This document shows positions 5,613-64,000 of a stretch of 64,000 bases of DNA, piece after piece. The notes below the pieces were generated by a model that did no database searches, was not told the origin of the DNA, and saw nothing but the letters and a program-made list of their open reading frames with translations. Numbering within the stretch: position 1 is the first letter of the stretch; every line of letters begins with the position of its first letter. The DNA lies in the NCBI GenBank assembly GCA_951406725.2, contig OX597818.1, forward strand, positions 54,436,001 through 54,500,000, given 5' to 3'. The DNA comes from Octopus vulgaris (Eukaryota). Made by a program: the position numbers and the translations under genes.

Positions 5613-6503
5613 TTATGTTAAAGGAAGCTTTTTCCTGTAAAAGTATAATTCTTTTGTTAACATGCTGACTATGGAAGGAACTTGTTTCATTCCATTCATC
5701 TCTGAACCCCCAGCATTAGACTCATATTCATAGGCAACCCTACGATTTACCGAAAGCATTAAGTGTTGCAGTTCAAGTTGGGGTCCGTCTTTTTCCAAAA
5801 TGTGGGCTAACGACTGAATAAATCACGATCCATTAGTGGAACTTCTCCAGGAGTAAAATCCAGGGACAGTGGAATAAGCCAGAAGAATGTCGGCCCAAAC
5901 TGGTACTTTGTGAGGTGTGACTTTTTTATATATGTCTCTAGCATCGACGCTAGCTGCATCGAGCACATCTACACCGCTGTCCATTTTTGTTCCACGACAA
6001 GCTTGTATGAAGAATAGTTTTGGCTTACCTATTAAGCTCGGACATCTCTCACGAAGCAGCATCTCTACTAAAGTATCCAGCTTTACTTTGCCATCAGTGC
6101 CATAAATCTGATTATCGTCTTCACCGTGGGTCAATATAACACAAACGAAGCAGTTATACTTCGTATAGTCCATCCTGGATATATCCGTAAAGATATGCGT
6201 CATCGCATTCACTGATAAATTCTTGCGGTCGAACACCTTAAAATGCAATGACTTCAAAGTTTTTTTTAATTGCTGTTGCATCTCTGTCGGATCCTTGTCG
6301 TTTAGACATTTTAGTCGATTTTTCAAACTTTTCGTTATTTATTATTAAAGCCAGGTTCTCTTTGTTACGATCCATGTCATATCTGGCATTTACAGATTCG
6401 CTATTTTCTTCATGAGACACCATTTCAACATCTTGAGGTTGTGAATCGGGATCTCTCTCTTTAAAAATATACCTTCAACACGTTGTGCATCTACGTAGTC
6501 CAT
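5613..6503 (-). pseudogene. Effector caspase (caspase-3/7-like) copy A, intronless, disrupted
   Basis: ATG at 6503 (MDYVDAQRVEG). Pieces 6238-6423, 5823-6326 and 5613-5798 carry LIINN, ILTHG, FFIQACRG, YSWR and KQVP motifs. Lesions versus copy C: -1 nt in a T-run (~6463-6467), +1 nt in an A-run (6260-6267) and TGG->TGA at 5823-5825. The C-terminus extends to YRKKLPLT. Confidence 0.93.
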
Positions 6504-8059
6504 GGTTGAGCGGAATATCTATAAAGCAGCCGAAATGTAGCAGTACAACTTTAAGCCGTGAAATATTGTTGCAAAATTTGAGGAACGGAAAATAACGATA
6601 TATTACCTCGGTTTTTCCCTTTGTTCAGCTCAGAAATAGCGGTTAAATTGATCCTGATGTTGCGGATAACACATGCGATTATTCAAAAAAGTATTAATTA
6701 ATATAAGATAAGAATTTGTAGGATAAAAGATGTAGTTTGATGAACGTACTCCTGGGTTTAATCAATATTTAAATGCTGAGATCAGTTGATAATTAAGCAA
6801 ATGTCCACATAGAACTTGATAATAAAAAGACAGTCCGCTGAGTGTCAATTTCACTGACGATGGGCGTGATTCTACAAGAGTTACTCAACGCAAAACTACT
6901 TCTACGTCTTATTTATTTTCTATGCTATATATATGATATTATCTGTGATATATGTTATGCTTCAATAATCATGGTTACGCATGAAGCAATGAGAGATAAC
7001 AAAGAAGCTGTCTATGCAATTTCCAAGAAAGAAATAACACAAATATTTTCTGAGAAAACGATATGATAAATCATTGCTAGGTTTTTGTCCAGTCATATAA
7101 GGAAACTGAACACACACAAACACATTCTCACTTTAACAAAATGTGCCCACACAACTTGATAATAAAAAGGACACTCTGCTGAACGTCAATTTCACTGACT
7201 ATGGACGTGATTCTACAAAAGTCATTCAACACATGACAACTTCCGCATCATATTTAATTTATATATTGTGTGAACGTTATCATCTTACTTGTAAGAGATG
7301 TTATGCTTCAAAATTAATGGTTAAAAATGAACCAATGAAAAATGAACTACAGTTAGGACGACGCCGATGACAGAAAAGTTTTCTTTGTAATTTACACGGA
7401 AGAAATAACAAAAAGATATTTGTTACAAAACGACATATTATATTGCGAGCTTTTTGTTCAATGCGTCTAGCCTCGCAGATGTGCTTTTGAACACGAATAC
7501 ACACACGCACGCACGCACGCACGCACACACACACGCACAAACACACACACTTACACACACATACACACAGGCGTACACGACCTCCACACACATACATACT
7601 TACGCTCATACCTATATACAATCCTACATACATAGTTATATATATATATATATATATATATATATATATGAATGCATATACATGAAATGGTGTATATTAA
7701 AATCTTTATCACACTGATATTATTAATATATATACATATATATATATGTGTGTATATATATATATATGTATTTATGTATATATATATATATATATATATA
7801 TATATATATATATATATATATATATATATATATATATATATATATATATATATATGTATGTATACATAAGCGATTTTTTCCCTCTGTCTCACCTTCTCTG
7901 GATCTTTCCGTCTCCTATGTTTCAGACGAAGTGCTACGCTCGAAACGTTAAACTCTCCTTCTTTCCTTCTTTCCTAAGCTTCCAATAATACTATATTTGT
8001 TCCACGTCCTCGCGTTGTTGTGTTTTTTTGTGCTTTCTTGTTTGGACTTTATATATATA

Positions 8060-8570
8060 TAGTATTAATAAAATATATGGAATGTGTAATAGACATTATT
8101 GGGTACAATACATGTTTCGACCCGTTCAGGGTCTCTTCAGGTACGTCTATAAAACGTCTCACTACTTCCTTTACTTTCTCTTAACAGTTACAACACTGAT
8201 AGCAGATTACGTCATTTTCTCTAAACCAGAATGTATACTTCCCAAGTTCATATTCGAATTTTTTGCGTTTCAATAATTTTTCTCTGGTTTTACTCATTCT
8301 CGAACTTGGACATATAGCGATACGTAAGCCGACTCAAGAAATCTCTGATGAGACATTTTATTGATGCACCCGAAGAGACCCAGAAAGGGTCGAAACACGT
8401 GTTGTACCCAATAAAGTCAATTACACATTCCCTCCCCTATTTTATTAATGCTATTACCCCAACCGCCACTACGAAGTCCCTGCAGTAAATCTATGGATAA
8501 CAAAAGGAAATCGAAAATGTAACGGTGCTTTACACATCATCCGCTTAAAAATTTTGTACATTTTCTCCAT
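8060..8570. mobile_element. ~500 bp Penelope-derived module with two outward-facing hammerheads (also ~1135-1630, ~16890-17400, ~57670-58160; half copy 55212-55370)
   Basis: Minus 8091-8150: atagac gtac-CTGAAGA-gaccc(tgaac)gggtc-GAAA-catgta-TT-gtac..gtctat. Plus 8361-8420: gcac-CCGAAGA-gaccc(agaaa)gggtc-GAAA-cacgtg-TT-gtac. Confidence 0.72.
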
Positions 8571-61234: not shown

Positions 61235-61915
61235 AATAAATCAAACAGCATTTCAAGTCTGTGTGAATATGCGAGTGCATATAAAAGGTGGGTATGTGAA
61301 TGTGTGTGTGCTTGTGTTTGTGTGCGTGTGCGTGTGCGTGCCCAATGGAAGTGGGATGCTGAACATTCAACGATGAAAAGAAAAATCAAACAGCGTTTCA
61401 ACTCTGTGCATTTGGTATTTACTTGCCAGCTCCCGTATTTAGTCACGGACAGCTGCATGTGGCCTTAAGTCGGACAATAAAGAAGGAAAACTTTAAATTT
61501 CTTTTAATTAGTTGTGGGTAGATTTTTCACAGGTTTTGTAGTAAAAGAATTATTAAAGTAAGAACTTGGTTTTGTACCTTATCTACTATAATCATACTAT
61601 TGGGTTTTTTTCTCCGTCACAACATATGAATGAAAAAAGAAGAAATAATAGATAAAAAAAGGAGTGATGGCAATATTCATAGTGGGGTGATAGAAACTGT
61701 AAGGTGAGAAAGAAAACTCAAACAGTGTTTCAACTCTGTGTCTATGGTATTTACTTACCAGCCCTTGTGTTTGGTCACGGCCAGAATTATGTGGCCTTAA
61801 GTGGGACAAGAAGGAAGGAAAACTTTCAAATTCTTTTGAAGGAAACAAGCAGTCAAAGTTGCAGATAGATTTTTTACAAAAGAAATTTAGTAATAAAAGA
61901 ACTATTAAACCAAAA
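61235..61915. repeat. Diverged local tandem repeat
   Basis: aaacag.gtttcaactctgtg...ggtatttactt.ccagc...gtggccttaagt.ggacaa at ~61388 and ~61720, with a partial copy at ~61243. Confidence 0.7.
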
Positions 61916-63395
61916 TTTTGCATCCGATTATTTATGGTCAAGTACTTGCTATTGCATAGCAATATCGCAATTGAGTATTATGTATGGAGGTGGGTAAATT
62001 AGGAATTTACCCAGGATTTATACGGCAAATAAGATAATGGAGGGGATATACAATCGAAAGACATCAACCAACACCCATCTTTTATTATTCATTCGTTTCT
62101 ATATTTTATATATATGTGTGTTTGTATATATATATGTTTATGCAGTTATTTACTGTTTCCATTCGTTAATTTGTATCCCTCTTGCATATGTGTGTAATAA
62201 TTTAATAAATAGACATAATTGAATGTTTGCTGATTGATGTCTGTTGATTGTATATCCTCTTCATTTTCTTTTTTGCCGTATATATATATATATAAAATGA
62301 AATACACATTGTGTACAGGGCATCACCATCGAGTGAAAAATACGTAAACATACGAGAGAAAAATAGAAAATAGCAAAAGAAGATAACTCCACATCTGTTG
62401 TCGGTCTGTTTATTAATCCTGTTTCATGCTTTTAACGATAACGTAGGAAACCTTCATAAAACATAAGCAGCATCCTGAAATTTGTGGAGAGTCAGAGCTT
62501 CGAACGAACGAACGAACGAATACAGAGTGGACGTGCAGAGTAGACAAACGACGGAGACAGACATTAAGGGTCGTTAGGCCAACACGAATTGCAATGAGCA
62601 ACGCTTGAGATGTATATGTGTATGTGTGTGTGTGTGCCCCCGTGTGTGTTTGTGTGTGTGTTTGTGTGCGTGCGTGCGTGCGTGTGTATGTTATGTATGT
62701 ACATATCTATATAAAGAGTTAAGTATGAGTGTGTGTGTGTGTGTGTGTCTGTGTGTGTGTGTGTGAGTGAGAGTGTGTGTATGTGTGTGTGTTCAGTTTC
62801 GTTATATGACTGGACAAAAACCTAGCAATAACTTCATATCGTTTTCTCAGAAAATATTTGTGTTATTTCTTTCTTGGAAATTGCATAGAAAACTTCCTTG
62901 TCATCTCTCATTGGTTCATACGTAACCATGATTATTGAAGCATAACATATGACACAGATAATATCATATATATAGCATAGAAAATAAATAAGACGCAGAA
63001 GTAGTCTTGCGTTGAGTGACTATTGTAGAATCACGCCCATCGTCAGTGAAATTGACGCTCAGCGGACTGTCTTTTTATTATCAAGTTCTATGTGGACATT
63101 TGCTTAATTATCAACTGATCTCAGCATTTAAATATTGATTTAACCCAGGAGTACGTTCATCAAACTACATCTTTTATCCTACAAATTCTTATCTTATATT
63201 AATTAATATTTTTTGAATAATCGCTTGTGTTATCCGCCACATCAGGATCAATTTAACCGCTATTTCTGAGCTGAACAAAGGGAAAAACCGAGGTAATATA
63301 TCGTTATTTTCCGTTCCTCAAATTTTGCAACAATATTTCACGGCTTAAAGTTGTACTGCTACATTTCGGCTGCTTTATAGATATTCCGCTCAACC

Positions 63396-64000
63396 ATGGA
63401 CTACGTAGATGCACAACATGTTGAAGGTATATATTTTAAAGAGAAAGATCTCGATTCACAACCTAAAGATGTTGAAATGGTGTCTGTTAAAGAAAATAGC
63501 GAATCTATAAATGCCAGATATGACATGGATCGTAACAAAGAGAATCTGGCTTTAATAATCAACAATGAAAGTTTCGACGAATCGACAGGAATGCCTGAAC
63601 GACAAGGATCCGATGAAGACGCATCAAAAATTAAAAAATCTTTGAAGTCATTGCATTTTGAGGTGATCGACCACAATAATTTATCAGTGAAAGAGATGAC
63701 GCAAATCTTCACGGATATATCCAGGATGGACCTTGCGAAGTATAACTGCTTCGTTTGTGTTATATTGACCCACGGTGAAGACGATAACCAGATTTATGGC
63801 ACTGATGGAAAAGTAAATCTGGATACTTTAGTGGAGATGTTGCTTCCCAATAGATGCCCAGGTTTAATAGGTAAGCCAAAACTATTCTTCATACAAGCTT
63901 GTCGGGTAAAAAAAATGGACAGCGGTAAAGATGTGGTCGATGCAGCTAGAGAAACACATGAAAAAGTCACATCTCACAAACTACCAGTTTGGGCCGACTT
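63396..64000 (+). CDS. Effector caspase copy D, partial (runs off the window end)
   Basis: Hand translation from ATG 63396 is open to the window end: MDYVDAQHVEGIYFKEKD...LALIINN...ILTHGEDD...KPKLFFIQACRVKKMDSGKDVVDAARETHEKVTSHKLPVWAD. It is missing from the ORF track because no stop lies in the window. Confidence 0.93.
   Translation, partial: MDYVDAQHVEGIYFKEKDLDSQPKDVEMVSVKENSESINARYDMDRNKENLALIINNESFDESTGMPERQGSDEDASKIKKSLKSLHFEVIDHNNLSVKEMTQIFTDISRMDLAKYNCFVCVILTHGEDDNQIYGTDGKVNLDTLVEMLLPNRCPGLIGKPKLFFIQACRVKKMDSGKDVVDAARETHEKVTSHKLPVWAD

Follow-up and report, generated by a model that had tools for sequence, protein, structure and literature searches.

A tandem cluster of 22 single-coding-exon caspase-3/7-like copies in Octopus vulgaris with mosaic coding sequences and likely positive selection

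The caspase copies of the window and their cluster

We analysed a stretch of 64,000 nucleotides of Octopus vulgaris (OX597818.1:54,436,001-54,500,000, assembly GCA_951406725.2), hereafter the window, whose positions serve as coordinates for the caspase copies it holds. Self-comparison and translation located four caspase-3/7-like single open reading frames (ORFs), A and B on the minus strand and C and D on the plus strand, facing outward on either side of a 7.2-kb palindrome spacer, as an original prediction made on this DNA had described. The array of four in that prediction is in fact a small part of a cluster: 22 caspase copies without coding introns, 15 intact and 7 broken, lie within 375 kb at C5:54.146-54.521 Mb. 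The reading that we favour, with some caution, is that this tandem cluster of single-coding-exon genes was built by direct and inverted segmental duplications and that coding segments have been exchanged among the copies and selected, giving rise to varied substrate grooves and linkers.

Copies A, B, C and D correspond to c17, c18, c19 and c20 of the cluster. Copy A (5631..6503, minus strand), with a DVLD-type linker, carries a -1 indel at nt 36, a +1 indel at nt 237 and a TGG>TGA change at Trp225; the same TGA is found in paralogue c21, which identifies A as a true pseudogene. Copy B (13866..14733, minus strand) is a probable pseudogene with a +1 insertion at nt 276 and a TTG>TAG change about 10 nt away, and these lesions are probably real. 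Copy C (49782..50648, plus strand) is an intact caspase-3/7-like ORF of 288 residues that keeps the His/Cys dyad and the QACRG motif, with lysine at the position equivalent to Arg207 and an IMHD linker. It matches Pfam Peptidase_C14 with 208.7 bits (cut-off 21.4, E = 1.3e-61), its best PDB match is a solved caspase-3 (E = 1e-67), and the labelled proteins closest to it among the matches listed come from O. vulgaris, then O. sinensis, O. bimaculoides and Argonauta hians. Copy D (63396..64000, plus strand, ending 256 bases past the window) is an intact ORF of 286 residues with a QACRV motif and a DVVD linker. The four single-exon coding sequences (CDSs) of the original prediction were thus recovered as single ORFs, but only C and D are intact.

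The B and C sequence type, proposed along with an A and D type, is borne out by the position of these copies in mirror arms and by their CDS identity of 97.9%. A and D, at 89.0%, are not mirror partners: this value is hardly above those of A/B (87.5%) and A/C (87.4%), and the nearest copies of A and D are c21 (95.9%) and c22 (91.1%), both outside the window. All four copies belong to one clade (bootstrap 100), with A and D in a sub-clade together with c21 and c22. The upstream region of about 600 bp said to be common to the four copies is indeed 96.8-98.5% identical in 6/6 pairs. With the cassette of C (49150..49781, plus strand) as reference, those of A (6504..7124, minus strand) and D (62771..63395, plus strand) match at 97% and that of B (14734..15365, minus strand) at 98%. 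A genome-wide transposon is ruled out for this cassette, as 22/22 of its matches fall inside the cluster, at C5:54.18-54.52 Mb. A possible 88-nt intron of the 5'-untranslated region (UTR), with borders AG/GTAAT and TTTATAG/AT, can be read at 49679..49766 (-103..-16, plus strand). It is present in 10/10 young units that have the upstream region, and the acceptor AG is absent in c01-c11; because of this candidate intron, the term intronless can be applied to the coding region only. Just 5' of the candidate splice donor, at about 49664-49676 and at equivalent spots upstream of A, B and D, we noted a GGGAAAAACC motif, found in 6/10 young units, which resembles a Rel/NF-kB site. An element confined to the cluster and about 70% similar to the upstream cassette, at 7133-7460, 17705-18046, 48081-48558 and 58694-59165, precedes several genes in either orientation; it has 8 copies in the cluster, one of them at the junction of the direct duplication described below.

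The cluster was catalogued from a search of the O. vulgaris assembly, which gave 77 caspase matches overall, and from 40 neighbouring stretches; there are no Ns in these or in the window. Strand order is minus for c01, plus for c02-c05, minus for c06-c18 and plus for c19-c22. A second palindrome, facing inward, spans C5:54169229-54346647, with arms of about 85 kb (C5:54.169-54.256 and 54.265-54.347 Mb) that are 96.8% identical over 39,435 aligned bases and hold the gene pairs c02/c10, c03/c08, c04/c07 and c05/c06. Copy c09 lies inside a stretch of about 6 kb found only in the right arm. Pfam hits among 65 other long ORFs of the fetched region belonged to transposon families, apart from a single caspase fragment and three weak, unrelated matches at the region edges. 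Long ORFs to the left of the cluster translate tandem repeats (one checked).

The centre of the window palindrome, at window 11-48 kb, has a direct copy at about C5:54.39-54.43 Mb. It could result from a very recent unequal crossover. It could also be a second haplotype placed in tandem by the assembly, which would add about 2-4 copies to the count and leave the palindrome real, a possibility that we take seriously without favouring it. In favour of a haplotype artefact, the spacer and its direct copy are 99.4-99.8% identical in four of five blocks (97.4% in the other), c14/c16 and c15/B reach 98.0% and 98.3%, and the indels of A and c04 fall in homopolymers. The junction of the duplication is inside a cluster-specific repeat, which suits an artefact but also fits unequal crossing-over. 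Against it, the region is gap-free, and the two copies differ in gene content, A being present in one only, and by multi-kb insertions. The cluster and both palindromes stand whichever origin is correct.

Mosaic coding sequences, probable selection and protein variants

Recombination was tested on the 20 full-length copies, leaving out truncated c05 and c21. The coding sequences are clearly mosaics across the cluster (pairwise homoplasy index, PHI, p = 0.0002). Significant identical tracts were found in 22/190 non-independent pairs, 13 on the same strand and 9 on opposite strands, and also joined distant copies. In the 10 young units that have an upstream region, this region differs by p = 2.8% of sites, compared to pS = 14.4% of silent coding sites and 9.0% of replacement sites, and pS exceeded upstream divergence in 45/45 pairs. 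The downstream flank of these units differs by p = 4.1% (52 pairs), meaning that silent sites (14%) differ about fourfold more than the flanks (3-4%). In 5/108 alignment windows, young copies were at least 97% identical to an old copy yet at most 93% identical to their own group. The mirror genes c02 and c10 are likewise 91.5% alike within flanks that are 98-99.7% alike; c04/c07 and c03/c08 reach 99.4% and 98.2%. These data are most simply explained by the uptake of older coding segments into young duplicated units.

Selection was tested on the 15 intact copies, all 7 broken copies being left out. In the codon site test of M2a against M1a, twice the log-likelihood difference (2dl) was 48.9 with one tree and 34.6 with four segment trees; omega, the ratio of replacement to silent rates, was 2.6-3.0 for 10-12% of sites. 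Neutral simulations on 12 discordant trees gave maxima of 27.5 and 11.6, and 0/24 reached the observed values. Sites 65, 100, 111, 263 and 266 were flagged in both analyses, 81 and 144 in the first only, and 68 and 184 in the second, four-segment analysis only. Sites 65, 68, 263 and 266 align to G60, S63, F252 and T255 of caspase-3, in loops L1 and L4, which border the substrate groove. Regional ratios of replacement to silent differences (pN/pS) were 0.63-0.80 in the loops, 0.97 in the prodomain and 0.40 elsewhere, in the core. These sequence comparisons suggest that positive selection beyond the recombination null is likely, acting partly in the substrate-groove loops.

Products of the cluster are 283-294 residues long, with an N-terminus of about 47 residues, and PF00656 was the only domain found, indicating a short prodomain without CARD or DED. 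R64, H121, Q161 and C163 are kept in 15/15 intact copies and QACRG in 14/15, the exception being D. Arg207, presumably part of the Asp-binding S1 pocket, is kept in 12/15, with lysine in C and c15 and glutamate in c11. Copy c11 (C5:54350690-54351553) is intact and combines Trp206>Tyr with Arg207>Glu in the pocket; its near-identical O. sinensis partner P0010 has the same Arg207 change. We consider c11 a candidate decoy or non-Asp caspase; a literature search on the R207E substitution found no relevant paper. In c06, as in its partners from two other species, residues 206 and 208 are Tyr and Arg and L4 is shorter by five residues. Of these altered pockets, the YSYEN type is kept in O. sinensis and the YSYRR type with short L4 in both O. 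sinensis and O. bimaculoides. The activation linker reads xMHD in 13/15 intact copies and in Argonauta proteins, DVLD or DVVD in A, c21 and D, and is altered in c22, where the Asp is lost. Pocket and linker variants would be predicted to affect specificity and activation, respectively.

Neutral churn could in principle produce such a locus: an unstable, transposon-rich region would duplicate a short gene, few copies would work while the rest drift, and the selection signal would reflect recombination and relaxed constraint. The broken state of 7/22 copies points this way, as do an overall omega of 0.68 with about 40% of sites neutral, the degenerate motifs of D (QACRV), C and c15 (R207K) and c22 (linker Asp lost), and the fact that recombination alone gives 2dl up to 27.5. 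We nevertheless judge neutral churn unlikely. In neither design did any of the 24 null simulations attain the observed 2dl, no intact copy has lost the catalytic dyad or R64/Q161, the core is constrained at pN/pS 0.40, and the altered-pocket types have been kept in other species.

The palindrome of the window

The left arm of the outward-facing palindrome (9326..25511) holds B and the right arm (32704..55136) holds C. They are 96.95% identical over 11,310 aligned repeat-masked bases, with differences of 1-5% and multi-kb insertions; a stretch of about 8.7 kb in the right arm (39267-47925) is without counterpart in the left. The spacer between them (25512..32703) consists of retrotransposon remains, is gap-free and has its near-identical direct copy at C5:54.409-54.417 Mb.

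The original prediction noted that palindromic arrays permit gene conversion between arms. In the strongest form of this idea, a palindrome of the Y-chromosome style would keep its arms alike by such conversion and preserve identical gene pairs. Many blocks of both palindromes are 97-99% alike, and the two closest mirror pairs of the second palindrome, c04/c07 and c03/c08, would agree with this view. Moreover, c02 and c10 each have an O. sinensis partner and yet lie in closely similar flanks. Over 8,020 three-way aligned bases with 326 variable sites, the odd one out was the c15 unit at 129 sites, C at 114 and B at 83. The 129 sites at which the flanks of the B and C arms agree against the c15 unit are above what a recent split, as suggested by the near-identical spacer, would predict, so that some exchange between arms is possible in the flanks. 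However, converting sex-chromosome palindromes have arms more than 99.9% identical, far above the identity found here. A comparison of the four arm copies gave 28 same-side sites and 8 mirror sites, and B is closer to c15 (98.3%) than to C (97.9%). Within the CDS, B and C share a derived base against c15 at 0/28 variable sites, the c02/c10 genes are only 91.5% alike, and multi-kb insertions distinguish the arms. Homogenisation between arms is thus not supported in the window palindrome, and we regard a Y-style mechanism as quite improbable; exchange appears instead to be cluster-wide and diversifying. A palindromic locus with genes more divergent than their flanks is the opposite of the usual ampliconic pattern. 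That the whole palindrome is a haplotype mis-join or a fold-back read artefact is hardly credible: the 97.9% identity of B and C is near a possible allele identity, but no gap interrupts the 7.2-kb spacer, differences of 1-5% and the 8.7-kb stretch separate the arms, and the assembly contains this inverted centre two times, with more identity between same-side than between mirror arms.

Several repeats mark the arms. A decayed non-LTR (long terminal repeat) retrotransposon with RVT_1 hits in the left arm (18190..21211, plus strand) is mirrored at 36405-39266 with a 97% match. The inner end of the left arm (25338..25511, plus strand) is a dispersed repeat of about 170 bp ending in a short hairpin (CCCCTA-T-TAGGGG core); it is mirrored at 32704-32875 (95%), and 37/41 of its genome matches lie outside the cluster. 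Beside it, at 24480-25337, there is a (TTA)n microsatellite of about 850 bp whose right-arm counterpart is much shorter.

Origin of the cluster and relation to known families

A quick tree of 99 proteins places the cluster in an octopod clade of 36 rows. One-to-one O. sinensis partners were found for c01, c02, c06, c09, c10 and c11, and an O. bimaculoides partner for c03/c08. Thus c02 and c10, although in mirror positions, are matched by separate O. sinensis proteins, and three Argonauta copies form their own branch. Among the best 120 of 641 hits, from which the relatives were taken, c13-c22 had no partner in another species. Together with the 7/22 broken copies, this pattern agrees with the birth-and-death turnover put forward at the outset.

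The sole multi-exon caspase-3/7 found, at C7:81.06-81.12 Mb, has at least four coding exons over 57 kb and orthologues across molluscs; its orthologue P0132 sits in the conserved gastropod/bivalve/chiton caspase-3/7 clade. In a 33-row tree, the cluster, squid and cuttlefish proteins and other octopus single-ORF caspases lie on one side of a branch (100/99). One protein of the squid group has the length, mass and isoelectric point tabulated for a bobtail-squid caspase. The same tree rejects the C7 gene as sister or parent (approximately unbiased test, p-AU = 9e-50 with P0132 alone) and the cluster as a member of the canonical molluscan caspase-3/7 orthologue group (p-AU = 0.015 with the whole clade). 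Copying of the linker of A from the multi-exon gene by cDNA-mediated conversion was also rejected (alignment score 75, compared to 65-74 for seven other copies). Because the cephalopod single-ORF caspases sampled group together and the multi-exon gene is rejected as sister, introns were probably lost once and early, and the single-ORF state is probably ancient in coleoids. With the multi-exon caspase-3/7 rejected as parent, retroposition is inferred as the likely route of this loss, from a parent that would since have disappeared. The proposed retrogene origin is therefore plausible, given the intronless coding region, but it would be ancient, and the genome-wide count and parent search that had been suggested gave no intron-containing sister among the 77 matches. 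A scan of metagenomes with the cephalopod alignment gave 80 loci at 29-48% identity, none evidently cephalopod, and these were not used.

Starting from this ancient loss of introns, probably through one retroposition at or before the coleoid ancestor, a compact gene of about 1 kb would have been easily duplicated, and inverted duplications would have flipped blocks of copies. The CDS would be the only sequence common to all copies, and through conversion there the older variants would be redistributed among young units that carry one shared promoter, which makes co-expression of the copies probable. Changes around the groove may be favoured under pressure of pathogen inhibitors or of new substrates, while redundant copies would decay. 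Initiator-type caspases are predicted to cut xMHD linkers and executioner-type caspases DV(L/V)D linkers.

Several points weigh against this scheme of duplication, exchange and selection. The observed 2dl drops to 31.6 with 8 segment trees and to 12.5 with 12; selected sites were called by empirical Bayes on 15 sequences; half of them (81, 100, 111, 144 and 184) lie outside loops L1 and L4, and no loop reaches a pN/pS of 1. The 22 tract pairs also depend on one another. Copies c14/c16 and c15/B may have been counted twice, because the spacer identity of 99.4-99.8% in 4/5 blocks is allele-like, and the lesions of B are possibly a local assembly or consensus error. As to origin, the 99-protein tree is a quick one, 'caspase-3/6/7-like' proteins from bivalves and gastropods are absent from the 33-row tree, and the cephalopod rows may have been drawn together by fast evolution. 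The single-exon structure in squid is suggested by ORFs on contigs, and no poly(A) remnant was seen by eye within 600 bases downstream of C, although it would be erased at such an age. Finally, an immune role of the copies is hypothetical.

Expansions of 'caspase-3/6/7-like' proteins are known in molluscs, where the premise that effector caspases are normally low-copy fails. The accessible part of PMC10967218 reports tandem executioner-caspase expansions in Mytilus, in arrays of 2-3 genes, with 32 executioner caspases in Mytilus coruscus, and that of PMC7836458 a tandem expansion in oyster. The coding region of the octopus copies is without introns while relatives carry them, as in the C7 gene and in 45/47 Mytilus caspases, which are intron-rich (PMC10967218, same part). 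Octopus totals of 'caspase-3/6/7-like' proteins given in PMC11543851 are 24 for O. vulgaris, 25 for O. sinensis and 11 for O. bimaculoides. Its supplement, as far as available, has 14 consecutive O. vulgaris rows (like2-like15) of 283-294 residues plus one fragment of 188 residues; these 14 rows match the cluster products by length, not by sequence. The available text of that paper treats bivalve and gastropod long-linker forms, and octopus is not mentioned in the portion of PMC11463336 consulted. As far as these partial sources go, the molluscan expansions (PMC11543851, PMC7836458, PMC10967218) resemble the cluster in being executioner-type and grown by tandem duplication; the gathering of 22 single-ORF copies with a short linker in one place, the two palindromes, the mosaic CDSs and the selection signal set the octopus genes apart from them. 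The number of genes has already been published in a supplement; literature on the layout of the cluster, its single-exon state or its selection pattern was not found, most subscription papers being outside the search.

A birth-and-death tandem family is of an ordinary kind. Less ordinary are the 22-copy single-exon unit, the pair of imperfect palindromes, the higher divergence of genes than of flanks and the pocket and linker variants kept across species. Vertebrate caspase-3/-7 genes are multi-exon and low-copy. Their products have the short prodomain, His-Cys dyad, QACRG and S1 Arg64/Gln161 in common with the cluster, which differs from them in forming a separate clade with a varying Arg207 (R, K, E) and a strongly variable L4. 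Another molluscan apoptosis family also has intronless members and large tandem arrays, but its intronless copies are dispersed and mostly untranscribed, whereas the octopus single-ORF gene is itself the tandemly amplified unit. In the X-linked MAGE-A retrogene family, according to the part of PMC3112145 available, retrotransposition, the probable first step in octopus as well, was followed by duplication with palindrome formation and by palindrome decay; there the protein family is another one and the parent lineage is known, while the octopus arms are only 97% identical and conversion appears to shuffle rather than homogenise.

A bolder extension is that octopods have a diversifying repertoire of executioner caspases engaged in an arms race like that of immune receptors, with a shared young promoter, coding cassettes shuffled by conversion across both palindromes, and proteases with differing pockets. 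Among these, the species-conserved Glu207 form of c11 would be a decoy for caspase inhibitors of pathogens or a caspase that has ceased to cut after Asp, and a sub-clade that passed from xMHD to DxxD linkers would serve as a second-tier amplifier. We hold this extension to be doubtful; if true, the execution step of cell death would be the site of such an arms race, and the repertoire a candidate machinery for the infection response or post-reproductive senescence. The 15 intact natural variants on one scaffold allow a direct test of the diversification of executioner-caspase specificity or of inhibitor escape. In octopus, 'caspase-3' serves as a marker of welfare, senescence and infection, and caspase-3-like proteins detected in skin mucus and haemocyte RNA are not assignable to the cluster (accessible parts of PMC11431876 and PMC4199593). 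As this name is shared by a single conserved multi-exon gene and by dozens of single-ORF paralogues, among them dead copies and copies with changed pockets, such signals need resolution at the paralogue level. A search of sequencing runs with C and its upstream region listed no RNA run holding it, and 5/24 rows held at least half of the words; this result was not used as evidence. The term 'caspase' had 0 hits in an ink proteome supplement.

Further single-ORF caspase matches occur on C19, C28, C26, C3, C20 and C7 and at other places on C5. Caspase-like genes with a single ORF form three additional clusters, at C19:7.04-7.13, C28:6.29-6.38 and C26:33.70-33.81 Mb, many of their members having altered catalytic motifs; the C26 genes have a longer N-terminus and are arranged on two strands. 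Single-ORF caspase-like genes without the catalytic His and Cys were seen at C20:19.89 Mb and at C5:76.01 Mb, the latter a minus-strand ORF of 312 residues that begins with the N-terminal motif of the cluster genes. Three related caspases, P0027, P0028 and P0131, are located on one 53-kb ENA contig, which suggests a tandem array in another cephalopod.

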